From Candidatus Dojkabacteria bacterium (GTDB taxonomy: Bacteria > Patescibacteriota > Dojkabacteria > B142 > OLB20), in NCBI GenBank assembly GCA_030583785.1, contig CP129475.1, positions 978,209 through 1,042,208 on the forward strand: DNA of 64,000 nucleotides. The letters run 5' to 3'. Positions 8,333 through 34,900 of the stretch are shown one piece after another. Under the pieces are notes generated by a model. That model saw only the letters and a list, made by a program, of their open reading frames with translations. It made no database searches and was not told the DNA's origin. Within the stretch, counting starts at the first letter, position 1; the number at the start of each line of letters is the position of its first letter. A program made the position numbers and the translations under genes.

Positions 8333-10336
8333 ATGACTGATATTGGTGCTTTCATTCTTTGGTATCTGGCTTCAATCCTGCTAGGCTTTATCGGGCTTCC
8401 TTTAAGCAATTTTCTTTTTCCTAAATGGAAGGATAGGGGATACATTTTTGCTAAAGCAATCGGACTTTTTATCATCGCGATGCCTTTATGGTTGCTTGTT
8501 TCGTTAAGGATAATTGAGTTTAGTGTTGTCTCTGTTTGGATCGCATTCTTTATCGGAATTACGCTTTCTTTCTTTGCTCTTCGCAAGCAGAACTTCAAAA
8601 TCAACAAGATGATGCTTTTTCAGGAGTTCTACTTTCTTACTGTGCTAGCAATTTGGGCTTATATCAGATCGTTTAATTCTCAAATTCAAGGTACAGAAAA
8701 ATTCATGAACCTTGCTTTTATGAACAGTATTGATCAATCAGGGTTCTTTCCTCCTTCAGATCCTTGGTATTCAGGTGGAACCATCAATTACTATTATCTA
8801 GGACATTATATGCAGGTGTTCATCGGTAAGCTTGTTGGGATCACTACAGGGTATACATACTCGCTTGCTCTAGTAACAATCATTGCCCAATTAAGTGTTT
8901 CGGTATTCTCTATCATTTACCGACTTTGCGGATTTGTCAAAGAGCCCTTGGCAGCGCGCATCGCTTTCCTAGGCTCTCTCTGGGTAAGTTTTGGCGGGAA
9001 TATGCATTATCCGTTTATGTACATTCAAAGTCTAATAAACGGTACCGAATTTAAGTACTTCTTTCCTGATCCGACAAGAATCATTCCGTTTGCCATAGAT
9101 GAATTTCCTGCTTACAGCATTGCTTTAGGCGATTTACATGGTCATTATATTGTGCTTCCTTACTTTATTCTGGCTGTAGCCTTGTTTGTGCAATCACGAA
9201 CAATTGCTCTAGGAAGCAAGAAGAAGTTAATTTTCAATGCAATTGCCTCACTATTCATAGTTTCGTTATATGGAATAAATAGTTGGGACGCAATTACTGT
9301 GATTTTTATGTTTAGTCTATTGCATTTGTATCAGGCCTTCGAAGCAGGCAAGAAAATTAAGAAATCCATTTACGAATTCTTGTTGGCGCAGATTGTATTA
9401 ATTCTTCCTGGAATAATTCTTATGTTGCCTTATATCCTTAACTTCCAACCTGCCGTTGGAGGTTTGGGTTTTGTTCCATTTGATCGCAGAAGTCCTATCG
9501 GTCCATGGTTACTTATGTGGGGTTTCTTTTTAATTCCAACAATTCTCTTCTTATTATCGGTTATTCGTAAAAAGATAGCTGTCAAAACTGCAAACATAGC
9601 TCCGATTCTGCTTTTTGTATGTGCTTCCTGTTTAATATTTGGAGTAGAGGTTTTGTATTTCAGAGATATCTTTGTGCAATCCAATTTTAACTACTTCCGC
9701 ACGAATACTGTTTTTAAGTTTTATTATCATGCATGGATTCTTTGGGGAATAGCGGCTAGCTGGTTTGTATTTGCATTAATCAATAAATCGCTATATAGAC
9801 CGGTTATTAAAAAGGCCATTTTATTTGGTTTTGTAGTTTTAGTGTCTTCTTCTGTTGTCTATATTCAAAAGGCTGTTAATGATTTCTATCCGTTGAATAA
9901 TCCTGGGATAGTAGCTCTCGACGGAACAAAATATCTTGAAACAAACCATCTACCTGATTATCTAGCTATAAGCTGGCTTAGAGATAACTTGTCAGGCCAG
10001 CCCGTAGTTCTAGAGGCGGTTGGGGAAGCATACACATATTCTGCGCGAATCAGCACCCATACAGGTTTCCCGACTGTGATGGGCTGGCCGACCCATCAGT
10101 GGCAATGGCGAGGAAACGCTAATCTTGCCTTCTCAAGATCAGACGATGTTAGAACAATTTACACAACAGATTCAGAAGAAGTTTTACGGACTTTGCTTGC
10201 AAAATACGAAGTTGAATACATTCTGGTTGGTGGAGAGGAAAGGCTAAAATACACGGAACTTAACACAAGTTTATTCTCAAGATTGTTTAAGCTTGTCTAT
10301 AATGAGAACTCAACTGCGATTTATAAAGTTGATTGA
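8333..10336 (+). CDS. large integral membrane protein, Chlor_Arch_YYY / DUF2298 family (GT-C-like)
   Basis: More than 12 TM helices with the family-typical motif GGTINYYYLGHY. 667 aa. Confidence 0.6.
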   Translation: MTDIGAFILWYLASILLGFIGLPLSNFLFPKWKDRGYIFAKAIGLFIIAMPLWLLVSLRIIEFSVVSVWIAFFIGITLSFFALRKQNFKINKMMLFQEFYFLTVLAIWAYIRSFNSQIQGTEKFMNLAFMNSIDQSGFFPPSDPWYSGGTINYYYLGHYMQVFIGKLVGITTGYTYSLALVTIIAQLSVSVFSIIYRLCGFVKEPLAARIAFLGSLWVSFGGNMHYPFMYIQSLINGTEFKYFFPDPTRIIPFAIDEFPAYSIALGDLHGHYIVLPYFILAVALFVQSRTIALGSKKKLIFNAIASLFIVSLYGINSWDAITVIFMFSLLHLYQAFEAGKKIKKSIYEFLLAQIVLILPGIILMLPYILNFQPAVGGLGFVPFDRRSPIGPWLLMWGFFLIPTILFLLSVIRKKIAVKTANIAPILLFVCASCLIFGVEVLYFRDIFVQSNFNYFRTNTVFKFYYHAWILWGIAASWFVFALINKSLYRPVIKKAILFGFVVLVSSSVVYIQKAVNDFYPLNNPGIVALDGTKYLETNHLPDYLAISWLRDNLSGQPVVLEAVGEAYTYSARISTHTGFPTVMGWPTHQWQWRGNANLAFSRSDDVRTIYTTDSEEVLRTLLAKYEVEYILVGGEERLKYTELNTSLFSRLFKLVYNENSTAIYKVD

Positions 10337-11169
10337 GAAGCTTTGAGGGTGTTCTCCAGAAGCATTGCGACTCCTAGTGGCCCGATTCCTCCTGGAACAG
10401 CAGTGATCCAAGAACACTTGTTTTGAATATTCTGATGACTGATGTCTCCTTTGGCTTTATTATTAACTATTCTATAGCCTGCATCGATAATTATTACCCC
10501 TTCTTTTACATCACTGTCTGATAGATTAATATCTGATCCAGTTGCAGAGATAATAATATCAGCGTTCTTTGTAAGATTAGAAATTGCTTTAGTATGCGAA
10601 TGAGCAATGGTAACTGTAGCGTTCAAATTCAGAAGCAATGCTGCTAGAGGTTTCCCAAACAGGATGGAACGATTTATAATCACTGTGTTTTTCCCCTTCA
10701 AGTAGTCGTTTAGATTCGAATCATAATATATCGAAATGTATTCAAGTGCCTTGAGAACAGCGAGAGGTGTAGCTGAAGCCAGTGCGTTTATATTATTAAA
10801 GATTCTGCCAAGATTCAGCGGATTAAGTCCATCGACATCCTTTCTTGGATCAATGGCTGCAAGGGCAGAGCTGGCATCTACTCCAACAACTGGGAGCTGC
10901 AGAATAATCCCATGTACGGAAGAGTCTTGATTCAGGCGATTTATACTATCAATGATTTCTGCAATATTGGTTGATGTTCTGATTAACAAAGATTCAATTC
11001 CGCATTGTTTTGCCTTCTCTTGTTTTAGCTTGACATATACTTCGCTGGTAGGGTTTTCACCCGCAAGCACGATACCAAGTTTCGGTTTCTGAGCAAGCAT
11101 TGAAACATGGCTTTTTATACCTTCAAGAATCTGATCTGCAATTTTATTGCCCGGTAATATTTGCATCAC
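10321..11169 (-). CDS. folD: bifunctional methylene-THF dehydrogenase / methenyl-THF cyclohydrolase
   Basis: The N-terminus (ILxGxxIA) and the C-terminus (PGGIGP) match FolD. Convergent with the previous gene and overlaps it. Confidence 0.9.
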   Translation of the reverse strand: MMQILPGNKIADQILEGIKSHVSMLAQKPKLGIVLAGENPTSEVYVKLKQEKAKQCGIESLLIRTSTNIAEIIDSINRLNQDSSVHGIILQLPVVGVDASSALAAIDPRKDVDGLNPLNLGRIFNNINALASATPLAVLKALEYISIYYDSNLNDYLKGKNTVIINRSILFGKPLAALLLNLNATVTIAHSHTKAISNLTKNADIIISATGSDINLSDSDVKEGVIIIDAGYRIVNNKAKGDISHQNIQNKCSWITAVPGGIGPLGVAMLLENTLKASQSTL

Positions 11170-11223
11170 TTATTGCCTGTTGCTAAACTACTACATAATT
11201 AATAGATTATACTCTAAGTAGTA

Positions 11224-12699
11224 ATGAGCAGAAAGTACACTTTCAAACTTGCCCCCAAATTAGCTTTCAATATATATCTCCCTTCAAGTGTTAAGTATGG
11301 TGGAGAGGGCCTTTTGACGATGTTACTGTATTTGCAACCCAGATTCTGGAAGTTTTTCCTCGTTTTCTTGATTCCTGTTTTCTTTGTAACTGGTACTCAA
11401 GATTTTGGTGCATCACACTTGTTGTTCCTTTATGCATTTGTCGTTTTGATTCTGTTTACACAGATTATGCTTAAGCTTCTTGGTAAGGGTGATTTTCTGC
11501 CCACAGTATCTTATGACTTACTATTGTTAACTTACACTAGTGTTATTGCCATTTCATTGTTACTTGCTGTTGTAAATTCACAAAACACATTTGCGCTTTG
11601 GGGCGGAGGTCTGTATAGGATTATTTCCGGATTAAGCATAATAGCTTACTGGTTTCTCTACTATCTAACGAATATTTTTGGACGCCAAGAAGGAATGCTA
11701 AGAAGGAGCATAGAGCTTATCGCAATATCAGCAATGATTGCATTTGTAGTATCTCTTGCTAATGCTTTACTAGAATATCCTTTTCCTCTTGGTGTCGGTA
11801 TATTTCATGGATATGTATTATTGATGCCTGTCTGGCTTTTATTATCCTTATCTTCGGTTAGATTAAACAAGCTATTCTTCGTTAATTTTGTTATTAGCAT
11901 AGTTCTACTAGGTCTTTATCCAGCAATAGAATTTGTGATTGGTTTGCTAGTTGCCTTTTCTGTCTTGTTGCTAATTGAACTTCTTTCAAATAAAGGAAAA
12001 ATAAAGCAACTAACCACAAAATTTTCTAAAGATTTTGACCTATACAGTGATAATCAGATTAAGTTATTTTCTATTCCAAGGCGAAACAAAAGTCTTGTAA
12101 AAATAGTATCTTCCGTAGTTTTTATTGCTCTCTCTCTTCTATGGTTATTGTCAAATCGCACCCTCTTTGTTTTTCCTCTGCTTGAAGCAGGACTGCCGGA
12201 ACTTCAAAAACTCGTATCTGTGCAGCACATTATCTTTGGAAATGGCCTGTTCTCAGAAGCCGGTGGAACAACAGTAACCGAATTAGTTAGATCTTACGGA
12301 TTATTAAGTTTTGTTGTGTTCTTTTCTTTGCTTCTAGTAATTCTTAGAGATCAATTTAAAGTTCTTAAAACAAGCAAGAATGATTACGAGAAAGCACTTT
12401 CAAAATCTGTTCTAACATTTGTTCCCGCAAGTATCGTTGTGTTTGCATTAAGCTGGACAACAGAGCTTCACCTGATAATTTTCTGGATTTGGATTGGTAT
12501 TGCCGGTGTTTTGAAATCGAGAGTTCTCGATAACGAGTTTCTAAAATTTGAACACAAATACATTAATTTGTCCTCAATTAAGAATAAAAATACAAGAAGA
12601 ATTGTTGAAATTGCCAGATTTGTAGCAATTTTGTTAATCATTGTAGCCGTAGGTTATTTCTTTAATCTACTGAATTCGATTCAAGTATTTATCAACTAG
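11224..12699 (+). CDS. polytopic membrane protein, unknown function (possibly a surface-polymer ligase or polymerase)
   Basis: About 12 hydrophobic segments and no soluble domain I can recognise. Confidence 0.5.
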   Translation: MSRKYTFKLAPKLAFNIYLPSSVKYGGEGLLTMLLYLQPRFWKFFLVFLIPVFFVTGTQDFGASHLLFLYAFVVLILFTQIMLKLLGKGDFLPTVSYDLLLLTYTSVIAISLLLAVVNSQNTFALWGGGLYRIISGLSIIAYWFLYYLTNIFGRQEGMLRRSIELIAISAMIAFVVSLANALLEYPFPLGVGIFHGYVLLMPVWLLLSLSSVRLNKLFFVNFVISIVLLGLYPAIEFVIGLLVAFSVLLLIELLSNKGKIKQLTTKFSKDFDLYSDNQIKLFSIPRRNKSLVKIVSSVVFIALSLLWLLSNRTLFVFPLLEAGLPELQKLVSVQHIIFGNGLFSEAGGTTVTELVRSYGLLSFVVFFSLLLVILRDQFKVLKTSKNDYEKALSKSVLTFVPASIVVFALSWTTELHLIIFWIWIGIAGVLKSRVLDNEFLKFEHKYINLSSIKNKNTRRIVEIARFVAILLIIVAVGYFFNLLNSIQVFIN

Positions 12700-12744
12700 T
12701 AGTTAACATCTCTACAGTAAACGGCTACAATATTAAAAAAAGTT

Positions 12745-14691
12745 ATGAAAAGTAAAAAAATTCTAGTAATCGTTCTGTTTTTAATTACTGTTTTAGTTGG
12801 CGTAGCTGCTGTTTATGTAGGCCTTCAATTGCAGGAACAGCCAGATGTTACTCCAGATGATACTAGTGCATTTGGGAGTGGGACAATAATCAATATTTGT
12901 GGAACAAATCCTCCGAGTGGTAACTGGGCTCAGCATGATGCAAATCCTTTATGTCAAGGCTGCTCGAACGGTAGTTGCACGGCACCTGCGGGAGGAAATG
13001 TAAGAGTATTTCGATGTAATCCAGGTGAAGAAGGTTCAGAAAACGGAGGTGTCACCTGTACTAGAAACGAGCAGGTACTTTCAGGTACAGTAAGTTTTAG
13101 TCAGGCATTCAACAACGATTGTCAAATAATTCAAATGGATGTCTTTGGTGATTCTACATATAATCAATTGAGAGACTTTGTGGTATGGAGAGGAAATAGG
13201 TTTGGAAATTGCGGAACACAAGTTACAAACACACCAACCCCGACTCCAACGAGTAGGTTAGCAATATGTGGAGAGTCATGTAATACGAATGCAGATTGTG
13301 CACCTTCAACTGGAGGAGCAAGAGTAATATGTCAGAATAATAGGTGTGTAAATGAGAACTGTCCAAACAATACAACACCAGGAACAATATGTTCATGCGG
13401 AAACACAGCTAGTTGTGGAGAGCCATGCGGAAAGAATACACTTCCACTATGTGGAGATGGAATTAGTGAATGCGGATTTATAGGTTCAGGAGGGATAACA
13501 CAGTGTAGAGAGAGCCAAAGGAATCCGTGGAACCAGTATTGTTTACCAACAAATCCTGCCAATGGTTATACAAGGCAGAGATGTACAACAATAGCTGCAT
13601 GGCACCTATTTGCACCAAACGGACAGGCGGTAACGACACAAGCTCAGGTGAGAGAAGCTTGCGTACCTTATACACCAACTCCTACTCCAAGCACGACAGT
13701 CAGTCCAACGGTAAGTCCAACAGTAACGGTTTCACCGACACCTTCTCCAACGACAACACCAACATTTACTGGTCAACAATGCGGCGATACTTGTACACCT
13801 TCTAACGGCGCAAGTGCATGCCCACAAGATCATACATGTGTTGATCCAAACAATGACAATGTCGGAACTTGTGTGTTAAACCTTTGTGTACAAAACTCGA
13901 ATCTCTGTTACTCAGACGGTTGTACACCAGTTCCAGATTGTGGTGAAGTCTGCGATCCATCGCAGTCAAATGCTTGCTCGGTAGATCATAGTTGCTTACC
14001 TTCGGGTACAAGTAATGTGTGTGTATTAAACCAATGTAACGACAATCCAGCACTTTGCGAAGCAGACAGATGTACTCCAATCGATGCAATTACAGTTACA
14101 AAAGCAGCTGTATCATCTTGTTCGTCTACTGGAGATCAGTTGACAGCAACTTATACAATTCGGGTGACAAATCCTAATCCTTCATCTAGAACAGTTACAG
14201 TAACAGATAACATATCGTTACATGCACCAGGCTCTCAGGTACAGACAAGCTCTATTTCAAATGGTGGAAGTTTATCCGGAACTATTATTACTTGGTCAAA
14301 TCTTTCACTTCCGGCAAGTTCAAGTGTCGATCTAACTTATCAAGTGGTGTATAACAGATCTTCGTTTAATTCTGCCTCAAGAAACATAGTTGTTGTCACC
14401 GAAGGAGGAATCGAGCGAGGCAGAACAGAATATACGCTCGTGCCATTCTGCTTGGCCGGAACTGCACTTATTTCAGATGAGGCGGATAGAATAATCATAG
14501 CTGCACTGCTTATAACTCTTGGTTTTGCAGCATACAGATTCAAAGCACATCAAGCTTTCGGCGAAATCGTCTGGAACGGTGCCTTAGTAAAAATTATTGG
14601 AAAGAACAATCCATTGAGTAGGAAAATACTCGAAGATCAAGCTCAAACTTTCGAATCTGGAGCAATTAGAAAAATTAAATCTGACGAATAA
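12745..14691 (+). CDS. Cys-rich surface protein with Thr/Pro linkers, a C-terminal DUF11-like domain and a C-terminal anchor
   Basis: Signal anchor, more than 60 cysteines, TPTPTP linkers, and a DUF11-like segment (TYTIRVTN..TVTVTD..ITWSNL). C-terminus reads TALISDEADRI, then TM, then RFK. Confidence 0.7.
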   Translation: MKSKKILVIVLFLITVLVGVAAVYVGLQLQEQPDVTPDDTSAFGSGTIINICGTNPPSGNWAQHDANPLCQGCSNGSCTAPAGGNVRVFRCNPGEEGSENGGVTCTRNEQVLSGTVSFSQAFNNDCQIIQMDVFGDSTYNQLRDFVVWRGNRFGNCGTQVTNTPTPTPTSRLAICGESCNTNADCAPSTGGARVICQNNRCVNENCPNNTTPGTICSCGNTASCGEPCGKNTLPLCGDGISECGFIGSGGITQCRESQRNPWNQYCLPTNPANGYTRQRCTTIAAWHLFAPNGQAVTTQAQVREACVPYTPTPTPSTTVSPTVSPTVTVSPTPSPTTTPTFTGQQCGDTCTPSNGASACPQDHTCVDPNNDNVGTCVLNLCVQNSNLCYSDGCTPVPDCGEVCDPSQSNACSVDHSCLPSGTSNVCVLNQCNDNPALCEADRCTPIDAITVTKAAVSSCSSTGDQLTATYTIRVTNPNPSSRTVTVTDNISLHAPGSQVQTSSISNGGSLSGTIITWSNLSLPASSSVDLTYQVVYNRSSFNSASRNIVVVTEGGIERGRTEYTLVPFCLAGTALISDEADRIIIAALLITLGFAAYRFKAHQAFGEIVWNGALVKIIGKNNPLSRKILEDQAQTFESGAIRKIKSDE

Positions 14692-14696
14692 ACACT

Positions 14697-16325
14697 ATGG
14701 ATCCTAAAAGAAAGGCACTATTAATATTTCTCTTTTTAGCCACAGTTGTGGTTGGTGTAGCTGCTGTTTACATAGGCCTACAGCTACAGGATCAGCCAGA
14801 TGTTACTCCAGATGATACTAGTGCAGCACCTGCTGCATGTTGTGAGAATGCCGGTGGTCCTTGTGATGCAGGTACTAGCTGTGGTGGATTTGATTTACAA
14901 CAAGCATGTAATGCAGGAAGAGGCTGGTGTTGGTGTGCACAGACAAATAACAAATGTCCAGAAGATCCTGGACAAACTTTAGAAACTTTTTGCGGAACGA
15001 GTAATTGGGATGGAAATGTTACTTATACATGTCCGAGCGGTCAAGTTATCTCATCAGCTCCAACAGCATTTCGAGATTGTGGAGTTTGCGGTGGTCCAAC
15101 CTCTCCACCAAATACAAACACTCCAACACCAACGCCACGAAAGGCAATATGTGGAGAGTCATGTAATACGAATGCAGATTGTGCACCTTCAACTGGAGGA
15201 GCAAGAGTAATATGTCAGAATAGAAGATGCGTAAATGAGAATTGTCCAAACAATACAACACCAGGAACAATATGTTCATGCGGAAACACAGCTAGTTGTG
15301 GAGAGCCATGCGGAAAGAATACACTTCCACTATGTGGAGACGGAATCAGTGAATGCGGATTTATAGGACCGGGAATAACCCAATGTAGTGAGAGTCAAAG
15401 AAACCCATGGAATCAATATTGTCTACCAAGAAATCCAGCCAATGGATATACAAGGCAGAGATGTACAACAATAGCTGCATGGCACCTATTTGCGCCAAAC
15501 GGACAGGCGGTAACAACACAAGCTCAGGTGAGAGAAGCTTGTGTACCTTATACACCAACTCCTACTCCGACACCAACATATCAGATTGCTGATTGCGGTG
15601 ATCCTTGCGATCCTGCTCAGGGCTCGTCTGCATGCGTTGTTGGACATACTTGTACCGATGTAAATGGAACAAATCAATGTGTTCTTAATCAATGTGTGAC
15701 AAATCCGGCTCTTTGTGAAGCAGACAGATGTAGCCTGTTAAACGAGGTACCATTAACAAAAAGCGCAAGAACAATATGTAGTGATTCAAATACCCCAGCT
15801 AATCAGATTGCAGTGTTTACAATTGTTGCTCAAAATGATCAAGCTGTAGCAAGAACATTCACGATCAGAGATACATTAGACTCAAGAATAACAGATTCAA
15901 TGGTAGTGCAGGCTAGTCTTACAAACGGAGGAACTGTCAGCGGAGGAGTCATTACCTGGCAAAATCTTCAGGTACCGGCAAACGGAACATTGACACTTTC
16001 GTATCAGGTGGCTTTAACTGGTAATCTTACAAACGAGACGCTATCCAATAGTGTTCTGCTGCTTGAGAACGGAGTTGAAAGAGGACAGGACTCAATTCAA
16101 TATACTCCAGGGTTATTACCATGTACTGCACTTATTTCAGATGAGGTAGACAGGATACTGATTGCAGCGGCTTTAATACTGCTTGGGTTTTCAATGTATA
16201 CATTCAAAGTTCATTATCAAATTGGTGATCTACTTAACCCTGAAGGTGCTTACTGGAAGAGCAAGCACAAAGCCAAAGCTGCAAAGTTCGGGGAGAAAAT
16301 AAGCAAAACCATTGACGGTCGATAG
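14697..16325 (+). CDS. Cys-rich surface protein, tandem paralog of the previous gene
   Basis: Same N-terminus and same C-terminus (TALISDEVDRI, TM, K). It shares a near-identical internal cassette of about 145 aa with the upstream paralog. Confidence 0.7.
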   Translation: MDPKRKALLIFLFLATVVVGVAAVYIGLQLQDQPDVTPDDTSAAPAACCENAGGPCDAGTSCGGFDLQQACNAGRGWCWCAQTNNKCPEDPGQTLETFCGTSNWDGNVTYTCPSGQVISSAPTAFRDCGVCGGPTSPPNTNTPTPTPRKAICGESCNTNADCAPSTGGARVICQNRRCVNENCPNNTTPGTICSCGNTASCGEPCGKNTLPLCGDGISECGFIGPGITQCSESQRNPWNQYCLPRNPANGYTRQRCTTIAAWHLFAPNGQAVTTQAQVREACVPYTPTPTPTPTYQIADCGDPCDPAQGSSACVVGHTCTDVNGTNQCVLNQCVTNPALCEADRCSLLNEVPLTKSARTICSDSNTPANQIAVFTIVAQNDQAVARTFTIRDTLDSRITDSMVVQASLTNGGTVSGGVITWQNLQVPANGTLTLSYQVALTGNLTNETLSNSVLLLENGVERGQDSIQYTPGLLPCTALISDEVDRILIAAALILLGFSMYTFKVHYQIGDLLNPEGAYWKSKHKAKAAKFGEKISKTIDGR

Positions 16326-16365
16326 AGTATTGTCCGTAGATTATGGTAAAATTACCTAGCATTTT

Positions 16366-16439
16366 CGGAGCTTAGTTCAGTTGGCTAGAATGCGCGCTTT
16401 GGGAGCGCGAGGTCGCCAGTTCGAGTCTGGCAGCTCCGA
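16366..16439 (+). tRNA. tRNA-Pro (anticodon TGG)
   Basis: Acceptor CGGAGCT pairs with AGCTCCG. Anticodon stem CGCGC/GCGCG with loop TTTGGGA. T-arm GCCAG-TTCGAGT-CTGGC. Confidence 0.85.
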
Positions 16440-16443
16440 TTTA

Positions 16444-17022
16444 TTAATCTATCCGCATCTTCTTCATCTGTTTGTAGAGCTTTGAGGCTTCTTCCGCTTG
16501 TTCATCGTTATAATCTTCCCTTCCAGATCTTAATACTGTTTTTATGATTGTAATGAGTCTTTTTCCTGCTTCGATTAGAATGTTCTTTCTTTCTTGCACA
16601 TCTTTGTTACATTCATCTTTCAATTCGAAAGGGCATTCGAGATCAATATGCTCAGCTAGTAGTATTGCGTCTACTGAACGCATTTGACTTCCAACAAATG
16701 AGATTAGTGCCTCTCGTCTCATTTCTGAAATATTTCTTAATGGCAGTGGTTCTATCTGTTGTTGTCTATGATAATCATCTGCTAAACGATCGATCTCTGC
16801 ATAGTTTATTATCTGATTTAGGGTACTATTAATATCTGGGGATGTTCTGGCCTTAAATAGAATTTCTTGAACTCCTTCAGATGGGATTATTCCGTCATTT
16901 AATTTCCCAAGATAGTAGAATATCGAATCACGAGCTTCGGTTTCAGCGTTGGTATTATCTAATAGGTGTAATGCGCCTCTATAAAGACTACTTATGCAAA
17001 TATTATTATCCTTCTCCAACAT
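16444..17022 (-). CDS. hypothetical protein
   Basis: 192-aa soluble ORF. Its stop lies 4 nt from the 3' end of tRNA-Pro. Confidence 0.5.
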   Translation of the reverse strand: MLEKDNNICISSLYRGALHLLDNTNAETEARDSIFYYLGKLNDGIIPSEGVQEILFKARTSPDINSTLNQIINYAEIDRLADDYHRQQQIEPLPLRNISEMRREALISFVGSQMRSVDAILLAEHIDLECPFELKDECNKDVQERKNILIEAGKRLITIIKTVLRSGREDYNDEQAEEASKLYKQMKKMRID

Positions 17023-17033
17023 TAGGGACTTGT

Positions 17034-18530
17034 TCAGAGGTTAACAACGAGAATGATATCATAGTTACCGGTATTGGCAAAACCAGAGGTGGAACCATTT
17101 ACTGCACGATTGCCAGTAATTTTCTGCAGCGAAGCTAGAGTATAAGGCTTGTCACCGTTTGTGAAATCAAGAATAGTAACTTCATCTTCGGTAAGTATGC
17201 TGGCAGTTTTTGTCTCTTCTTTTAAGATGATAGGAAATTTAGAGTCTACGATTTCAAGGTATTTCTCTGATGAGAACGAAGGTTTTCCTGCAGAGTCTTT
17301 GCTTGTTGAGATTACACCGATTTTGGGTTGCTCTGAATATACTCTAGGATAATTAATTACACCTGAAATGTAATCGTGTACTTTGCAAAAAGGATTTTCA
17401 AGGCATATCCTCCAATCGGTTGGAACCATGTAGTAGGGTCCACCAGGGCGATTATGGGGTTGCTTGTTAATCAAAGCTTCTTTACCTGCAAGCTCAGGGC
17501 TAAGAATTACATTAGAAATTTTGTCATTACCGAGTTGTGGTAGTAGTTGGATAAGTTCGACAATCTCGCCGAAGCTTAATTGACTGAATACTATTCTTTC
17601 TCTAAACACTCCAAACAGATTAAGAATTTTTGTCGGATTTAATAAGGTCCCCGATGATAAGACTCTGTCTTTGACCGCTTGAATAAAAATCTGTTGTCTT
17701 TCTGCTCTTCCCCAATCTTGAGTGAACTGCCTGCTCCGAACAAAACGGATTGCTCTTTCAGCATCCATAAAATGTCTGCCTTTAGGAAAATAAAGACTCT
17801 CCCAGCCGTGGTCATTATAAGGGTAGATCTCATAAAATGCTTTGGGGTTATCAATCCAGAGACCCGTTTTACCGTTATGTTCTTCTCCAACTATTTCGAC
17901 TATCTCGTTAAATGCTTCAAGAGTCACAAAAACATGGTAATGCACCGGTATTCCTGTAACGGATGCAACTGTTGTTTTTAATACTTCTATCCCCCCCTGA
18001 GGACATTTTTTTGTTTCAGCTTTGTCGTAAACCCAATGAATACTTCCATGGAATTTTAGACAATCAATTTCAACATCAACTCCCATGTCTCTGGGGATTG
18101 AGATCATAGTTACATTTTTATCTTTGTGGTTATAAACCACCTGCATGATAGTGTCGGTGTTTCTAGTACCGGACTGGTTTTCTGGTCTTGTATTTACAAA
18201 CACTCCATTTTCTAGTTTTACATTTCTGGAATCAACACCGACAAGAAGCACCGAAGTAAGTCCGTCAGTATGTTCTAGGATTGTAGTGAATGATTCCCCT
18301 TGAACCTGTGGTTGGATCTCGTTCTCCCTGTTGTCTTGAAGTTGATTAGGATCATTGGCGACTGCTCTGAATGTATTTATTTCATCTTGGTTTTTTGCCA
18401 AAATCGATTTGCCAAGAACTATTCCCATGATAATCAAAAGAGGGAATACTATGAGAAGTACTCGCTTAAAGCTAAGTTTTCGTTCTTGAGCAATGGGTTT
18501 TGGGTAGATTGAAGGTTCTAAGACAATCAT
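17034..18530 (-). CDS. LytR-CpsA-Psr (LCP) family cell-wall glycopolymer phosphotransferase
   Basis: N-terminal TM helix, LCP motifs (VLLVGVDSR, DTIMQV, ISIPRD, FVRSR) and a LytR_C-like C-terminal extension. Confidence 0.8.
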   Translation of the reverse strand: MIVLEPSIYPKPIAQERKLSFKRVLLIVFPLLIIMGIVLGKSILAKNQDEINTFRAVANDPNQLQDNRENEIQPQVQGESFTTILEHTDGLTSVLLVGVDSRNVKLENGVFVNTRPENQSGTRNTDTIMQVVYNHKDKNVTMISIPRDMGVDVEIDCLKFHGSIHWVYDKAETKKCPQGGIEVLKTTVASVTGIPVHYHVFVTLEAFNEIVEIVGEEHNGKTGLWIDNPKAFYEIYPYNDHGWESLYFPKGRHFMDAERAIRFVRSRQFTQDWGRAERQQIFIQAVKDRVLSSGTLLNPTKILNLFGVFRERIVFSQLSFGEIVELIQLLPQLGNDKISNVILSPELAGKEALINKQPHNRPGGPYYMVPTDWRICLENPFCKVHDYISGVINYPRVYSEQPKIGVISTSKDSAGKPSFSSEKYLEIVDSKFPIILKEETKTASILTEDEVTILDFTNGDKPYTLASLQKITGNRAVNGSTSGFANTGNYDIILVVNL

Positions 18531-25913: not shown

Positions 25914-28900
25914 ATGAGAAAAAAGCGAATGTATATTCCGTTAAATCCTTTGTTAGATGCTCTTCCAGAGATAACTAGAAAAATCAGAGAGATTGAAAAT
26001 AAGATATATATATTATTGATAGCAGTTGTTCTTCTTGGAGGTGTATTTGCGGGAGTTAATGGACTTAATATGTTTGGAGGAATATATGCACAGCAGTTTT
26101 GTCCTCTTCCGGCAGCCCCTGCCAAAGTTCTGTCACTAGTTACAATTACTCCTGATTCTGAAGACGGTGTTGTGGATTGTTCATCTCTAGATATTATTAT
26201 CGGAGCAGGAGGAACAGTTGTCGTTGATAGATATGTAACAGAGAATGGCACAAGCGAGGGTGATTGGGGGGTTACGCTACTTGTTAAGAGTCTTACAGTT
26301 GAAAATGGCGGATTGATCTCTGCCGATGGTAAAGGTTATACAAATACTGATGACGAAGTTGTTAGTGGTAAAGGTGGAAACGCAACTACTACAGCTGGTG
26401 GATCGGGGGGAGCACATGGGGGTGCCGGTGGAGAAGGTTTAGCACCTGTAGGTGGCTCGGCTCCAGTTCCAGGTGTGGCATATGGAACAGAAGAAAATCC
26501 CTCAACTCTAGGAAGTGCTGGAGGCAACAGTTTTGATGGAGGTTTAGGTGGAAATGGAGGTGGATCTATTCGAATTCGAGCCAGTGAATACTTAGTAATT
26601 AATGGACAAATAACTGCTAATGGAGCACAGGGACTCGCTCAAGGGAACAGTTCAGGGGGTGGTGGAGCAGGAGGTAGTATTTGGATTGAAGCAGAATCGT
26701 TTTCTGGGAATGGAATAGTAGAAGCAAAGGGAGGAAGTGCTCAAGAGGTTACATACCAAGGAGGAGGTGGCGGTGGAGGTAGAATTATTATGTTCTGCAA
26801 CTCCTCAAATCTTTTTACTGGCAGTGTGTCTGTTTCTCCAGGAATCACTTCACTTTCTCAAGATGGAGGAATAGGTTCTCGGCTTGGGCCAACCTGCATA
26901 CCAAACGAACCGACTCTACTCAAGCAATTCTCAAAATATGATCCCCCAGGAGCTACTCCTCTACAAACTGTAGAAATCGGCCAAGGTGGTGTCATGCGGA
27001 CAGACAGACTAGATTCTGTGTTGTTTGTTGCCAATATGTCCGATATTGATGTAACGGACACTCTTACACTACAAATTGAAGTCAGACCAATTGGAACAAG
27101 TTTTACTGGAGTTCCAACTCATACTCAGTCAGTTAACATGAGCAATCCTCAGAATTGTTCTAGTCCTCCTTCGGGTTGCGGAACAATAGATATACCAAAG
27201 GCACAACTACCTGCCTCTACAGAGTATCATTGGCAGGCAAGAATAAGAGATAATAGAGGTGGAATAAGTGAATGGACACAATTCGGAAATAATAATGATG
27301 GTGAACGAGATTTCTTAATAACAGGAACACCGACAAATATTCTTCTTGTAAGTGGTGGCAATCAATCAGGCGTTGTCGGTCAGCCATTGGCTAACCCTAT
27401 GTTGGTGCGTGTGCTTGATGCTGCTGGTTATGGTGTACCAGACCAAAGTTTGACTTGGTCAATCCAAAACGGTGGTGGCACTCTTGGGTCACAAACATCA
27501 ATTTCCAATACAGAAGGTGTTGCTCAGAACACCCTAACACTTGGAGTTGTATCCGGAAACAATTCTAACACTGTTCGAGTGAGCGGTGTAGGCTCAGCTT
27601 TAGATATCAATCATTCATCAATCTCAGATGAAGCTGTAAGATTCTCGCTTTCAACGCCAACGGTTGCCATCCGATCAGAAGAATTTACCTTTTCGGTCAT
27701 AGCCTATGACCAATATAATAATATTGCGACCACTTACGATGGTTCTCCCAATCTATCTGTCGTTAATCCATTGAATTATTCACAGACTGTAGGTGGGAAT
27801 TTTGTACCTAGCTCAATTACTTTCCAACTAGGTGATCAAGGGCAAAAGGTGATTAGTAATGCAACCTTTGATACATTGGCGAGTATCGCAATAAAGGTAG
27901 TTGACGGAGATATCTTTGGATATTCAAATGCAATTGCCATTGTTGACACATTGGGGCAGTGTCCAGACGCTGATGGTATTATTGATTCGGGTGGAGACAT
28001 TGTCTGGGAAGCAGGAAATTATCCGGGAGCAATTATTGATTGCAGAGGATTAGACATTGTAGTTAAGTCGTCAAATACATCTCAAGTAACAAATCTTGTT
28101 ATCAGGCCTTCCTTAACTGAATCAGTTCCGGCGACCCTTCTTGCCGATAGTATAACAATAGAAAGTGGAAACTCTCTAAATTCGGACAGAAGAGGATTTA
28201 CTGCAGGTCAAGGACCAGGTACAGGATGTGGAGCAGCTCATGGAGGTTACGGAGTAAGTGTGTCAAACAGAGGAGTGCCGTATGGTTCAGTTAAAGAACC
28301 GGTAACGATGGGATCCGGAGGTTGTACACGAAGTTACTTTGGTAATCTCTCAGTAGGAGGCGAAGGAGGAGGAGCAATCAAAATTGTTTTAACTGGTAAC
28401 CTTGTCGTTAATGGAAGACTTACAGCAGATGGAGGACCGGGAACTAGCAATATAACACAAGGAGCGGTGGGAGCAGGAGGATCACTATGGTTGAGTGCAG
28501 ACAGAATAGACGGTAGCGGACTCATAAGTGCTAACGGAGGAAACAGAGCAGGAGCAGGAGGATCAGGAGGAGGAAGAATAGCCATATACGAGAACAGTAG
28601 AGGAAGTTTTCCAATAACAAACAAGAGTAACATACAGGCATTTGGAGGAGGAGGCGGAAGCTTTGGAGGAGCAGGAACAATATACATAGATGCAGATGGA
28701 CAAAGCGGAGGCAACGGAGATTTATGGATAAACAATAACAATAGAAATACAGAAGCAGCAGGAGTACCATACGATGCAGTAAACCCGGTACAGCAGTTTA
28801 ACAAGATATATCTAAAGGAATACGGACACTTGCAGATAATGGGACTGGATTCGACCTTGGTAATACCAAGCCAAGAAAGTGTTGAAGGTGATAACTCAGC

Positions 28901-31900
28901 TCCAATTTTAGAAGTTATCGGTACTATTCAACTACCTAGTAATTACATTGTAGATAGATATACTCTTTCGATTGCCGGAGATTACACTGGTGCTTCTGAA
29001 TTAATAATAGGTAACGGCAGTAATCCGGCCAATTTAAGACTATATGCGTATAATCAGAAGCGGTACTCTAATAAATCCCCTAACCATGATGTTTATGAAT
29101 TTTCTTCTTTGACAGTCCGTAGTGGTGCATCCCTGTTTCTGTTCTCTTATGATGGTAATGGTTCTGCAAACAATGGCCGAGGACTTCAAGATTATGGGGT
29201 AAGAATAATTGTGGACGAAGACTTTGAGATTGAAGCAGGAGGCTTAGCAACAAGCAATGGAAGAGGTTATGCTACTGCATTGGGACCAGGGACAGGATGT
29301 GGAGCAGGTCATGGAGGTTACGGAGTAAATGTAGCTAACAGAGGAGTACCATATGGTTCAGTTAAAGAACCTGTAACAATGGGATCCGGAGGTTGTACAC
29401 GAAGTTACTATGGTAATCTTTCAGTAGGAGGAGAAGGAGGAGGAGCAGTAAGACTGAATGTAGGAGGAGTACTTAGGGTAGATGGAAGTCTGACAGCAGA
29501 CGGAGGACCGGGAACAAATAACCTAACACAGGGAGCAGTAGGAGCAGGAGGATCACTATGGTTGAGTGCAGACAGAATAGACGGTAGCGGACTCATAAGT
29601 GCTAACGGAGGAAGCAGAGCAGGAGCAGTAGGATCAGGAGGAGGAAGAATAGCCATATACGAGAACAGTAGAGGAAGTTTTCCAATAACAAACAAGAGTA
29701 ACATACAGGCATTTGGAGGAGGAGGCGGAAGTTATGGAGGAGCAGGAACAATATACATAGATGCAGATGGACAAAGCGGAGGCAACGGAGATTTATGGAT
29801 AAACAATAACAATAGAAATACAGAAGCAGCAGGAGTACCATACGATGCAGTAAACCCGGTACAGCAGTTTAACAAGATATATCTAAAGGAATACGGACAC
29901 TTGCAGATAATGGGACTGGATTCGACCTTGGTAATAACAGATGAAGAAGGACTCGAAGGAGACACAACAGTACCAAGATTAGAGCCACAGGGATTAATAA
30001 GTCTACCGGAGAGATTTGTGGTAGACAGAGTAAACCTAGACATTATAGGAGACATAGAAGGAGCAGGAGATTTAGAGATAGGAAATGGAGATGAACCAGC
30101 GGCAGTAACATTGTATGCTTACACACAGAAGAGATACACAGCCAAGAGTCCAAACCACGATGTGCATATACTAGAGAGTTTAATAGTTAGAGACAAATCT
30201 GTACTTAACTTGGTATCTTATGACGGCAACGGGACATACATGAATGCATCTTCACTGTCTGACTATGGAGTAACACTAACACTAGGTCGAGACTTTACAG
30301 TAGAGACTGGAGGAATAGTAACAACAAATGGAAGAGGTTACGCAAGAGGAGCAGGACCTGGGACAGGATGCGGAGCAGCTCATGGAGGTTACGGAGTAAA
30401 TGTGTCAAGTCAGGGAGTACCGTATGGTTCAGTTAAAGAACCGGTAACGATGGGATCCGGAGGATGTTCTAGAGACTACTTTGGGAACTGGTCCTTTGGA
30501 GGAGAGGGAGGAGGAGCAGTAAGACTGAATGTAGGAGGAGTACTTAGGGTAGATGGAAGTCTGACAGCAGACGGAGGACCGGGAACAAATAACCTAACAC
30601 AGGGAGCGGTAGGAGCAGGAGGATCACTATGGTTGAGTGCAGACAGAATAGACGGTAGTGGACTCATAAGTGCTAACGGAGGAAGCAGAGCAGGAGCAGT
30701 AGGATCAAGTGGAGGAAGAATAGCCATATACGAGAATAGTAGAGGAAGTTTTCCAATAACGAACAAGAGTAACATACAGGCATTTGGAGGAGGAGGCGGA
30801 AGCTTTGGAGGAGCAGGAACAATCTACATAGATGCAGATGGACAAAGCGGAGGCAACGGAGATTTATGGATAAACAATAACAATAGAAATACAGAAGCAG
30901 CAGGAGTACCATACGATGCAGTAAACCCGGTACAGCAGTTTAACAAGATATATCTAAAGGAATACGGACACTTGCAGATAATGGGACTGGATTCGACCTT
31001 GGTAATAACAGATGAAGAAGGACTCGAAGGAGACACAACAGTACCAAGATTAGAGCCACAGGGATTAATAAGTCTACCGGAGAGATTTGTGGTAGACAGA
31101 GTAAACCTAGACATTATAGGAGACATAGAAGGAGCAGGAGATCTAGAGATAGGAAATGGAGACGAACCAGCGGCAGTAACATTGTACGCATACACACAGA
31201 AGAGATACACAGCCAAGAGTCCAAACCACGATGTGCATATACTAGAGAGTTTAATAGTCAGAGATAAATCTGTACTTAACTTGGTATCTTATGATGGCAA
31301 CGGGACATACATGAATGCATCTTCATTGTCTGACTATGGAGTAACACTAACACTAGGTCGAGACTTTACAGTAGAGACAGGAGGAGTAGTAACAACAAAC
31401 GGAAGAGGTTACGCAAGAGGAGTGGGACCAGGGACAGGATGCGGAGCAGCTCATGGAGGTTACGGAGTAAGTGTGTCAAGTCAGGGAGTACCGTATGGTT
31501 CAGTTAAAGAACCTGTAACGATGGGATCCGGAGGATGTTCCAGAGACTACTTTGGGAACTGGTCTTATGGAGGAGAAGGAGGAGGAGCAGTAAGACTGAA
31601 TGTAGGAGGAGTACTTAGGGTAGATGGAAGCTTGACAGCAGACGGAGGACCGGGAACAAATAACCTAACACAGGGAGCAGTAGGAGCAGGAGGATCACTA
31701 TGGTTAAGTGCAGACAGAATAGACGGTAGCGGACTCATAAGTGCTAACGGAGGAAGCAGAGCGGGAGCAGTAGGATCAGGAGGAGGAAGAATTGCCATAT
31801 ACGAGAATAGTAGAGGTAGTTTTCCAATAACAAACAAGAGTAATATACAGGCATTTGGAGGAGGAGGCGGAAGCTTTGGAGGAGCAGGAACAATCTACAT

Positions 31901-34900
31901 AGATGCAGATGGACAAAGCGGAGGCAACGGAGATTTATGGATAAACAATAACAACAGAAATACAGAAGCAGCAGGAGTACCATACGATGCAGTAAACCCG
32001 GTACAGCAGTTTAACAAGATATATCTAAAGGAATACGGACACTTGCAGATAATGGGACTGGATTCGACCTTGGTAATAACAGATGAAGAAGGACTCGAAG
32101 GAGACACAACAGTACCAAGATTAGAGCCACAGGGATTAATAAGTCTACCGGAGAGATTTGTGGTAGACAGAGTAAACCTAGACATTATAGGAGACATAGA
32201 AGGAGCAGGAGATCTAGAGATAGGAAATGGAGACGAACCAGCGGCAGTAACATTGTACGCATACACACAGAAGAGATACACAGCCAAGAGTCCAAACCAC
32301 GATGTGCATATACTAGAGAGTTTAATAGTCAGAGATAAATCTGTACTTAACTTGGTATCTTATGATGGCAACGGGACATACATGAATGCATCTTCATTGT
32401 CTGACTATGGAGTAACACTAACACTAGGTCGAGACTTTACAGTAGAGACAGGAGGAGTAGTAACAACAAACGGAAGAGGTTACGCAAGAGGAGTGGGACC
32501 AGGGACAGGATGCGGAGCAGGTCATGGAGGTTACGGAGTAAGTGTGTCAAGTCAGGGAGTACCGTATGGTTCAGTTAAAGAACCTGTAACGATGGGATCC
32601 GGAGGATGTTCCAGAGACTACTTTGGGAACTGGTCTTATGGAGGAGAAGGAGGAGGAGCAGTAAGACTGAATGTAGGAGGAGTACTTAGGGTAGATGGAA
32701 GCTTGACAGCAGACGGAGGACCGGGAACAAATAACCTAACACAGGGAGCAGTAGGAGCAGGAGGATCACTATGGTTAAGTGCAGACAGAATAGACGGTAG
32801 CGGACTCATAAGTGCTAACGGAGGAAGCAGAGCAGGAGCAGTAGGATCAGGAGGAGGAAGAATTGCCATATACGAGAATAGTAGAGGTAGTTTTCCAATA
32901 ACAAACAAGAGTAATATACAGGCATTTGGAGGAGGAGGCGGAAGCTTTGGAGGAGCAGGAACAATCTATGTATTCTCTAGGTCAATAAACCCAGAGGTAG
33001 GTAGTCTTTACTTATTCTCAAATAGAAGCAATATCGATTATTCTGAAGACTTTGTTGCTGGTGAATTCTTCCTACATGATTTAATACTCGATGATGGAGT
33101 AAAAGTAAAATTAAACAGTAATCTAGATGAAGGTTACGGAACAATTTACAACCTGACAGGTGATTTCTATCTAGGAGAAAATTCTCTTATTGATGGGTTT
33201 GCAAGAGGCTATCCTTCAGAGCAGGGACCAGGAGCGGGTCAAACTGGTCTAGGACAATCTGGAGGTGGGGGAGCAGGTCATGGCGGTAGTGGTGGTAATG
33301 GTGAATCTGATGGAGGCAACCCATCTCCCGTTGGAGGACAATTCTATGGAAATCAACGAGAACCTTTAACAGTTGGATCTGGTGGTGGTAGATCAGGTGC
33401 TGGTGCCGCCGGAGGCAGAGGTGGCGGAGCGATTGCCTTAAGAGTTAGAACTGGACATGTAGAAATTAACGGCAATATTGATGTGCGAGGTGAGGCTGGA
33501 CTTATTGCATCTCCAGGTGGAGGCGGAGGCGCTGGGGGGTCAGTTCTAATTGAAGGTCAAACATGTGATATCTCAGGCAATATTTTGGCAAATGGCGGTA
33601 ACGGAGGAGAAGAAGCATTTGATGGAGGTGGTGCAGGAGGCGGAAGGGTGTCAATTCTAACAACCCAGGGACCTTGTGACATTAATGGCTTGGTCGATGT
33701 TAATCAAGGCTCGAGTAGCGGAGGTCAATCTGGACAGGTAGGAACTTATCCAACGCTTGGTACTATCCCTGCAGTTCCAGACTTTCGTGATCAGTTTAAA
33801 ACAGACTCAGTAACTACCATTCCAGTTGGAGGAATAACACAAGAACAGGAAGTAGTTCTAAAAGTTAATATGTCCGACCCCGGAGGGTCTGAATCTAATA
33901 GTATCTCACTTCAAGCTCAATTCGAAGTTGTTAGAGTCGACGAAGAATTTACTGGGGTTGCATTGATATCAAGTGAAAACTTCTTCTTAGCATCAGATAG
34001 TCAAGATGAAGAGTCATCGGTGCTTGGAATATCGACAAGCACAACGGGTAATTATTCAGGTGGTGCGCCCCTACTCGCGGAAGCTAGCATCAGTGATCTC
34101 ATACCTGGAGCCAGTTATAAATGGCGTGCCAGAGTTATTAACCCATCTGAAGGAATATCTGGAACATGGGTAGAGTATGGAGGGAATGGTTCAGATCAAG
34201 CCGACTTTATTGTCAGTACGGTAGAGTCGTTAACCATCGAATCTGATAAATACAATGTTGAAGTTGGAGAGCCAATTACTCTAACTGTAAGTTCTTTGGA
34301 TGAAGATAATCAACTGGATCCATCATATCGAGGAACTGTTCAGTTCATATCTAACTCTGAGACTGCAGTTTTACCGGTTAATTATTCTTACACTTCAATT
34401 GATCAAGGTGTGAAAGAATTTACAGAAGAAACGATTTTTGTTGAACCAGGTGTATATACCATTACAGTCAGAGATACAATCAATGCTCTCTTGCAAGCAA
34501 CAACAGCAGATATAACTGTAACAGGTGATCCCGAGTCTGAAAATAATATTGATCCAGATATTTGTTTGATAGAGCCAAATCGCATCGAATGTCAACAGCC
34601 TGTTAGGATATCGAATGTTAGAATAAGTCTTATAGAAAGAGGATCAGTTAGAATATGTTGGGATACAAATATTGCAACCAGAGGCACGATTAATTATGGT
34701 CTTCTTGAGAACGCTCAATTGACAGATTCTGTTGGCCCCGAATCAACTTATAAAGTAAGAGATCATTGTTTAGATCTAATAGAACTCGATGATCCAGAAG
34801 AATACATATTCAGAATTACAGCGGTATCTTATGCTGGAAGAAGCGCTACATATACAGGAGGTTTCAATACTTTAGGAGAAGTAATCACAGATATTCCCGA

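Follow-up and report, generated by a model that had tools for sequence, protein, structure and literature searches.

Gene conversion between paralogous adhesin genes has been reviewed for the babA/babB and sabA/sabB pairs of Helicobacter pylori (e.g., PMC5483490, PMC4552749). Here, we compare with these systems two tandem genes, p1 and p2, which lie in a 64,000-nucleotide (nt) stretch of DNA (positions 978,209 to 1,042,208 of contig CP129475.1, assembly GCA_030583785.1); this whole stretch is called the window, and its own numbering is used throughout. The sequence comes from a metagenome-assembled genome (MAG) of Candidatus Dojkabacteria (WS6), a lineage of the Candidate Phyla Radiation (CPR), and the contig spans 1.17 Mb. 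Both genes are located on the + strand with a spacing of 5 nt, and they share one internal block, termed the cassette, which encodes a Cys-rich domain and is far more similar between the two genes than the remaining sequence.

The likeness to the bab and sab genes consists in an internal segment copied non-reciprocally between surface paralogs of the same genome, in sharp identity steps, in chimeric products and in a process that needs no dedicated machinery. In H. pylori, however, long conserved 5' and 3' ends enclose a variable binding-domain middle that is swapped, with a change in adhesion, whereas in p1 and p2 substitutions have reached saturation at both ends and over most of the gene, a single internal domain is shared, the effect is homogenizing and the organism belongs to the CPR.

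UspA1, UspA2 and UspA2H of Moraxella catarrhalis are paralogs built from interchangeable cassettes, some of which are near-identical between otherwise differing paralogs. They are comparable to p1 and p2 as modular surface paralogs with near-identical cassettes, but they are trimeric autotransporters with coiled-coil or repeat cassettes, whereas the p1/p2 cassette is predicted to form a globular, disulfide-rich domain between Thr-Pro linkers. Duplicated bacterial genes such as tuf and the rRNA operons undergo concerted evolution by gene conversion. These genes and p1/p2 have in common that the tracts form a mosaic, that synonymous sites are homogenized and that the shared segment is under purifying selection, with the difference that whole genes are homogenized in the former and one domain inside otherwise saturated paralogs in the latter. 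In expression-site/silent-cassette systems (pilE/pilS, vlsE, msp2), the donors are truncated and promoterless, in contrast to the copies in p1, p2 and a third gene of the same genome, QY330_01865, which all reside in full-length genes.

With regard to their C-terminal halves, both proteins resemble the DUF11 (PF01345), DUF7927 and pilin immunoglobulin-like (Ig-like) domains of Gram-positive surface proteins in a predicted Ig-like beta-sandwich (TM-score ~0.6) with weak sequence matches. They differ from DUF11- and pilin-type proteins by scores at or below the cut-off, by the lack of a match to LPXTG models and by a distinct conserved motif, behind which come a transmembrane (TM) helix and a long tail. 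As a mechanism, gene conversion between tandem paralogs of surface proteins belongs to textbook knowledge; modestly new are an undescribed disulfide-rich domain family without a fold match in PDB or BFVD and the CPR setting. Knowledge is scarce on the way in which ultra-small CPR bacteria assemble and vary the surface used for attachment to partner cells, and the locus provides a clean, quantifiable example of gene conversion at the level of a domain.

The shared cassette and its mosaic structure

In a protein-guided codon alignment, the two cassettes differ at 28 of 426 aligned nt (6.6%, corresponding to 93.4% identity) and by one codon indel, whereas 538 of 1158 nt (46.5%) differ between p1 and p2 outside the cassette (Fisher P = 8e-58). 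The change is abrupt: DNA identity climbs from ~54% to 93% precisely at the domain borders, 40-46% of the adjacent 57-60 nt on each side differ, and the identity of third codon positions amounts to 0.15-0.6 outside and 0.85-1.0 inside the cassette. The left border is sharp at position 13261, and the right limit follows the TPTPTP codons at 13688/9. A repeat finder split the match into two blocks (13261-13491 versus 15144-15374 with 96% and 13492-13688 versus 15372-15568 with 91% identity), whose spacings of 1883 and 1880 nt place a 3-nt indel between them. Searching the window with tblastn returned exactly these two cassette copies. Their substitutions comprise 21 transitions and 7 transversions, and the two encoded domains are 96% identical in protein sequence. 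A preliminary description, made from the sequence alone, had reported such a sharp step, which is borne out by divergence that is not uniform; the gene coordinates, the offset of ~1883 nt and the peptide that it quoted were all correct. Its term almost identical is slightly generous in view of the 28 substitutions, 17 of them within 13483-13566, and the codon indel.

Synonymous (dS) and nonsynonymous (dN) divergence was estimated region by region according to Nei-Gojobori (Table 1). The comparison of synonymous divergence inside and outside the block, which the same description had suggested, gave a dS of 0.11-0.14 for the left and right parts of the cassette in contrast to at least 1.2 outside. 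On both flanks, synonymous sites are saturated (dS 1.2 to infinity) and dN ranges from 0.3 to 0.9. The N-terminal anchor served as an internal control: here, the proteins are 85-90% identical, yet just 55-75% of the third positions agree. Since synonymous sites within the cassette are homogenized, protein constraint is insufficient as an explanation, and DNA was therefore copied between the paralogs. The remaining differences between the cassettes are almost all synonymous (dN/dS ~0.07), and the domain is thus under purifying selection in both genes.

The differences are not evenly distributed over the cassette. The middle patch carries 17 of the 28, i.e. 17 in 81 nt compared to 11 in the remaining 345 nt (P = 5e-7). 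At the protein level it is still identical at 24 of 27 positions (89%), although no other part of the domain is conserved as poorly within the family. Maximal exact matches extend over 79 nt (13261-13339), 98 nt (13360-13457) and 47 nt (13567-13613), and when the 28 differences were placed at random in a permutation, runs this long occurred at P = 0.0008-0.0015. This implies that the cassette is a mosaic, consisting either of tracts of at least two ages or of the products of patchy repair. We read the locus as three tiers: an ancient gene duplication (dN 0.3-0.9), a sharing of the whole domain at intermediate age, preserved in the middle patch (dS of at least 1, dN 0.05), and a recent re-homogenization of the left and right parts. 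The same pattern would result from one recent event between copies of ~80% identity if mismatch repair was patchy.

The proposal of a recent gene conversion or cassette exchange thus holds in so far as DNA was copied between the paralogs, but the mosaic block does not represent a single clean recent event. The visible effect is demonstrably the homogenization of one domain, i.e. concerted evolution, whereas the proposed surface-protein diversification is only hinted at by module shuffling in relatives and by differences between strains. Besides the cassette, the anchor-coding repeat holds a 33-nt perfect match (12838-12870 = 14793-14825). This repeat may be a second, older conversion tract, because its dS is intermediate (0.65).

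Probable gene conversion between the paralogs and competing explanations

We consider it likely, with a probability of about 75%, that the shared cassette is kept alike by non-reciprocal homologous recombination between the tandem paralogs, with an entry from p1 into p2 followed by later tracts, and without dedicated machinery. The two cassette copies, which are 1.88 kb apart, would act as substrates of gene conversion. Initially, a rarer module transfer from p1 to p2 would have taken place, with junctions in or beside the Thr-Pro linker codons. Afterwards, RecA-type recombination, a candidate pathway, would have found a sufficiently long substrate in the shared stretch alone, and later tracts would have re-homogenized the cassette up to, and never past, the limits of homology. 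Presumably, the tracts end at the limits of prior homology because the saturated flanks block the extension of heteroduplexes. The middle patch would have been skipped by conversion or restored through patchy mismatch repair, and dedicated machinery would play no part in any of these steps. Taken together, the sequence comparisons give good support to an ordinary process, either homologous gene conversion between the tandem paralogs or the transfer of a module from one to the other.

Relatives of the two genes provide clues to the direction of the transfer. In P0008, from another Dojkabacteria MAG, a homologue of the p1 N-module, module A (30%, E = 1e-4), is joined to the cassette domain. Contig L001, from a related genome, is syntenic with the window, with DUF2298, FolD (on the opposite strand) and a 484-amino acid (aa) membrane protein followed by an array of paralogs. 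The first array gene, P0004, contains the cassette with 44% identity. The second one encodes a counterpart of the p2 N-module, module B (47%, E = 6e-31); next to it comes an Ig-like module, and the gene has neither a cassette nor a DUF11-like domain. P0003, the nearest relative of the C-terminal half of p2 (59% identity in the DUF11-like domain, compared to 37-38% between p1 and p2), also lacks the cassette. Because the combination of module A and cassette recurs in P0008, P0004 carries the cassette and the relatives of the p2 modules are devoid of it, parsimony favors p1 as the putative original carrier and p2 as the recipient.

Several points weigh against this scenario. The assignment of donor and recipient draws on relatives that are distant (30-50% aa identity), the family shuffles its modules freely, and the N-module of P0004 shows no significant similarity to module A. 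Just left of the cassette border, p2 has the family-typical start 'PRKAICGE', whereas p1 reads 'SRLAICGE'; as p2 and not p1 retains this start, p2 may have possessed an old cassette copy of its own that was later overwritten. The middle patch could have been supplied by a third copy or by DNA of another strain. QY330_01865 itself was rejected as the donor, having a nt identity of 56-60% in this patch. The phasing of the 28 differences comes from a single MAG assembly, with independent contigs reaching the last 30 nt of copy 2 only, and cross-polishing of a 430-nt repeat could have created or blurred the mosaic.

Other assemblies were reached via exact look-ups of the flanking proteins. All ~50 contigs retrieved in this way terminate either at the 5' anchor of p1, or ahead of it, or within the right end of the p2 cassette, and the short-read assemblies of this organism, made from over 20 samples, break at the locus in every case, so that most public data do not reveal the variation there. 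Strains with an identity of at least 99.9% occur, for example, in the samples DRR859393, DRR859397/8, SRR33233609/11, SRR23332755, SRR34539587 and SRR17055907. Two contigs from other samples, L008 and L009, which match the window at this level, show exactly the same junction between the p2 cassette and the unique sequence, including the p2-specific bases at 15542 and 15569, and L008 does so with 100% identity. Contigs derived from the upstream side all end within the first 150 nt of p1. Three of them end at 12857-12867, as the 33-nt repeat of p1 and p2 would break a k = 31 graph. In four contigs examined (L011, L013, L014 and L016), the p1 upstream region and the first 113 nt match the window before the sequence switches at 12858 to 'PDDTSAAGPNEGYT' and ends after 37 nt; eight further similar places were reported, L025 has the same layout and L024 is also listed. 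The 37-nt sequence is absent from the window and from the contigs of the JGI metagenome collection that were scanned, and represents either an alternative p1 allele or a path into another paralog.

An unlikely alternative to repeated conversion is that the module was inserted or replaced in p2 just once, recently and at the linkers, with nothing but point mutation thereafter. The exact coincidence of the cassette borders with the domain and linker borders would suit such an event, as would the L001 homologue of the p2 N-module without cassette. It predicts, however, an even divergence, which disagrees with the accumulation of differences in the middle patch and its saturated synonymous sites, and perfect runs of 79 and 98 nt would be improbable (P ~0.001). 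We regard it as rather improbable that the copies are in truth more different, or identical, and that a repeat consensus formed during assembly or polishing made the pattern. The sequence does stem from a MAG, the breaks in the short-read assemblies mark a region that is hard to assemble, and the interior of either cassette is covered by no independent contig. On the other hand, both copies are in frame with near-purely synonymous differences and one clean codon indel, the contig is long (1.17 Mb), the cassette-to-p2 junction is reproduced by L008 and L009, and the contig breaks fit the real 33-nt repeat in the anchor region.

Programmed variation, either by a diversity-generating retroelement or by an expression site with silent donor cassettes, is very improbable. 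It would be in line with the surface-type proteins, the modular family, a possible alternative module after the anchor in other samples and the strain alleles of the third copy, in which the C-terminal half varies ~10 times more than the background at the same residues that differ between p1 and p2. The differences between p1 and p2 are overwhelmingly synonymous, though, and both copies are part of full-length genes with their own starts; truncated or silent cassette copies were not found in the window. A diversity-generating retroelement was rejected, as the substitutions have no adenine bias (adenine is present at 6 of the 28 differing sites in p1 and at 11 in p2) and neither a reverse transcriptase nor a recombinase was found among the neighbors within ~7 kb. 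Selection on the protein alone, with a domain far more constrained than the rest and no recombination, is barely credible. The very low dN of the cassette (0.02) and the Cys framework, which is invariant in the family, would agree with it, whereas the near-identity of synonymous sites over three quarters of the block, the diverged third positions of the conserved anchor and the identity of only 31-58% between domain copies in other genomes or proteins speak against it. The Rfam search of 12000-17000 at the gathering threshold, which returned zero families, tRNA included, likewise provides no RNA family that could constrain the DNA, and an RNA embedded in the cassette region was rejected on this ground.

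The 16-Cys domain family and a third copy

A profile of five cassette sequences was compared with 1.84 billion representative proteins and matched 99 of them at E<=1e-3, among these 60 at E<=1e-10. Nearly all 99 matches span the whole profile, in host proteins of 120-1150 aa and at positions between residues 30 and 900. This indicates that the cassette, far from being an arbitrary stretch, constitutes a complete domain between Thr-Pro linkers that also occurs independently. An alignment of 33 sequences contains 17 invariant columns, 16 of which are Cys; the domain in the window has its 16 Cys within 137 aa. It would represent an extracellular, disulfide-rich binding or structural module with eight predicted disulfides. 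No Pfam family and no NCBIfam model matches it. The AlphaFold2 model obtained with the 33-sequence alignment is a confident one and reached a pLDDT of 85 and a pTM of 0.70, and the fold had no match in the PDB and BFVD libraries searched.

All family loci that bear organism titles belong to MAGs of Dojkabacteria or Saccharibacteria. Where several copies occur in one genome or one protein elsewhere, they are 31-58% identical in protein sequence, and by this comparison the 96% identity of the p1 and p2 cassettes is exceptional within the family. An index of 5.8 billion proteins returned essentially zero matches when queried with the cassette alone or with the 33-sequence profile; the family surfaced in the full HMMER scan. 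Scanning of the JGI metagenome contigs for close relatives of the cassette revealed none, and the source organism seems to be absent from this collection. Literature searches yielded nothing on the cassette family, nor on surface proteins of CPR bacteria that undergo gene conversion; the domain family is previously undescribed, and the domain would be a sensible target for studies of structure and binding.

The third cassette copy of the genome is part of QY330_01865 (P0016), a full-length 829-aa gene of different architecture, and is 60% identical to the p1 and p2 cassettes in protein and ~51-70% in DNA. Two strain alleles of this gene, L021 and L019, differ at 113 of 5490 nt. Of these differences, 36 fall within 187 nt in the middle and right parts of the cassette (domain at nt 1684-2133 of both contigs), where identity drops to 82% and 85%, compared to 99.6% in the left part and ~98-99% elsewhere. 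The C-terminal half of the domain consequently varies ~10-fold above background, and the variable residues are those in which p1 and p2 differ (C[R/S/N]E, LP[T/R]). In its right part, the P0109 allele agrees with p1/p2 at six consecutive variable sites, and it has 13-14 matches versus 6-7 overall; this resemblance is only suggestive. A doubtful, more far-reaching possibility is that the cassette serves an episymbiotic CPR bacterium as a module for binding its partner or host, with a fold that has no solved relative. Its variable C-terminal half would be exchanged by short tracts among at least three copies (p1, p2 and QY330_01865) and among strains, the junction between anchor and ectodomain would be a second swap point, and surface variation would proceed free of any machinery.

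Protein architecture, surface anchoring and neighborhood

According to module-by-module BLAST, p1 consists of the N-terminal anchor, module A, the cassette domain, a long Thr/Pro/Ser/Val linker, two Cys-rich repeats of ~50 aa, the DUF11-like Ig domain, a conserved motif with a TM helix and a charged tail. In p2, the anchor is followed by module B ('CCENAGG...'), the cassette domain, a short Thr-Pro linker, a single Cys-rich repeat, the DUF11-like Ig domain, the motif with TM helix and a tail. The right linker of p2 comprises TPTPTPTPT only (15552-15578). Coordinates are collected in Table 1.

Table 1. Features of the p1/p2 locus in window coordinates, with divergence between the two genes (pS, proportion of synonymous differences)
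Feature	Position in p1 or of single feature	Position in p2	Strand	dS	dN	Remarks
p1 (QY330_04615)	12745-14691		+			gene 1, 648 aa
p2 (QY330_04620)		14697-16325	+			gene 2, 542 aa
Anchor-coding repeat	12763-12870	14718-14825	+			83% identity (repeat finder)
N-modules				1.59	0.91	
Left Thr-Pro linker of p1	13231-13260	~15114-15143	+			diverged
Cassette, copies 1 and 2	13261-13688	15144-15568	+	0.28	0.02	copy 1: complete 143-aa domain, 16 Cys, plus TPTPTP linker codons; copy 2 vs copy 1: 28/426 nt differ, one codon deleted
Left homogenized tract	13261-13482	15144-15365	+	0.11	0.01	
Middle patch	13483-13566	15366-15446	+	pS 0.84 (saturated)	0.05	unconverted or older; one codon indel
Right homogenized tract	13567-13688	15447-15568	+	0.14	0	4 synonymous differences
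Right Thr/Pro/Ser/Val linker of p1	13672-13779		+			p1/p2 identity stops after first TPTPTP (13689)
Cys repeat				1.17	0.46	
DUF11-like Ig beta-sandwich domain	14095-14484	15753-16145	+	1.23	0.80	Pfam scores, AlphaFold, Foldseek
Motif 'TALISDExDR(I/L)' + TM helix	14461-14550	16125-16214	+			71% nt identity
TM region				1.75	0.30	
tRNA-Pro(TGG)	16365-16440		+			ARAGORN; context only

Both proteins are rich in Cys (42 residues or 6.5% in p1, 38 or 7.0% in p2, with 7-9% in the ectodomains) and contain Thr-Pro linkers, and their N-terminal anchors (79% aa identity) as well as their C-termini are homologous, all as described before. The whole proteins score 17.5 and 21.7 bits against PF01345, below the Pfam cut-off of 24.6, and the excised p2 domain alone passes it barely with 25.6 bits. 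Among nine family members, four match DUF11 at E<0.01 and seven match DUF7927. The AlphaFold model of the domain (pLDDT 87, pTM 0.82) has eight strands, and the best PDB matches found by Foldseek were Ig-like domains of two pilins, EbpB and LrpA, and a domain of a fibrillar adhesin (E = 1.6e-4, TM-score 0.62). The predicted Ig-like beta-sandwich fold is therefore well supported by modeling, whereas the DUF11 label is borderline by sequence. In contrast to what had been stated, the proteins do not end in this domain, which is followed by the conserved motif, the TM helix and a charged tail of 35-65 aa.

The C-terminal arrangement, '[LV]P.[TS]AL[IF][ST][DE]E.D[RK][IL]' with the subsequent TM helix and tail, is present in all family members (P0003-P0012 and the L001 genes); within the window, the family anchor and C-terminal motifs are confined to p1 and p2. 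At the LPXTG-like site, p2 reads LPCTA and p1 LAGTA, followed by the acidic 'LISDExDR'. None of the NCBIfam models, those for LPXTG and sorting signals included, matched at E<=1 in either protein. The motif recalls an LPXTA sorting signal and may serve Dojkabacteria as a signal for anchoring or sorting that has yet to be described. Due to the N-terminal hydrophobic segment, the Thr-Pro linkers, the Cys-rich ectodomain and the C-terminal motif with TM helix and tail, it is a reasonable inference that p1 and p2 are membrane-anchored extracellular proteins, and they are tandem paralogs of a modular, Cys-rich Dojkabacteria family whose members are probably surface proteins.

The array of contig L001 (8001-15561) contains four paralogs instead of two (670, 476, 733 and 607 aa), which have the same anchor and differing N-terminal modules; the 607-aa protein, L001_g4, possesses a large module and no Cys-rich repeats. 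From this composition it follows that the array expands, contracts and swaps modules between lineages.

The neighbors within ~7 kb encode RecJ, DUF2085, SHMT, DUF2298, FolD, LCP, HAD-like and GH1 proteins, a Glucosamine_iso-family protein (PF01182) and G6PD. Envelope-related genes flank the pair on both sides (8333-12699 and 17034-18530), namely the DUF2298 membrane protein, a 491-aa polytopic membrane protein and the LytR-CpsA-Psr protein. The 491-aa protein is without annotation and adjoins the paralog array in relatives, too. The tRNA-Pro(TGG) gene begins 40 nt 3' of p2. Further downstream, a giant open reading frame of 3402 aa (25914-36122, + strand) lies in a stretch that stands out by a G+C content of 0.44-0.455, compared to ~0.38, and a very strong GC skew of 0.27-0.31. 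Its Pfam matches, Big_1 and CarboxypepD_reg-like, are weak only, and it probably encodes a giant surface protein.

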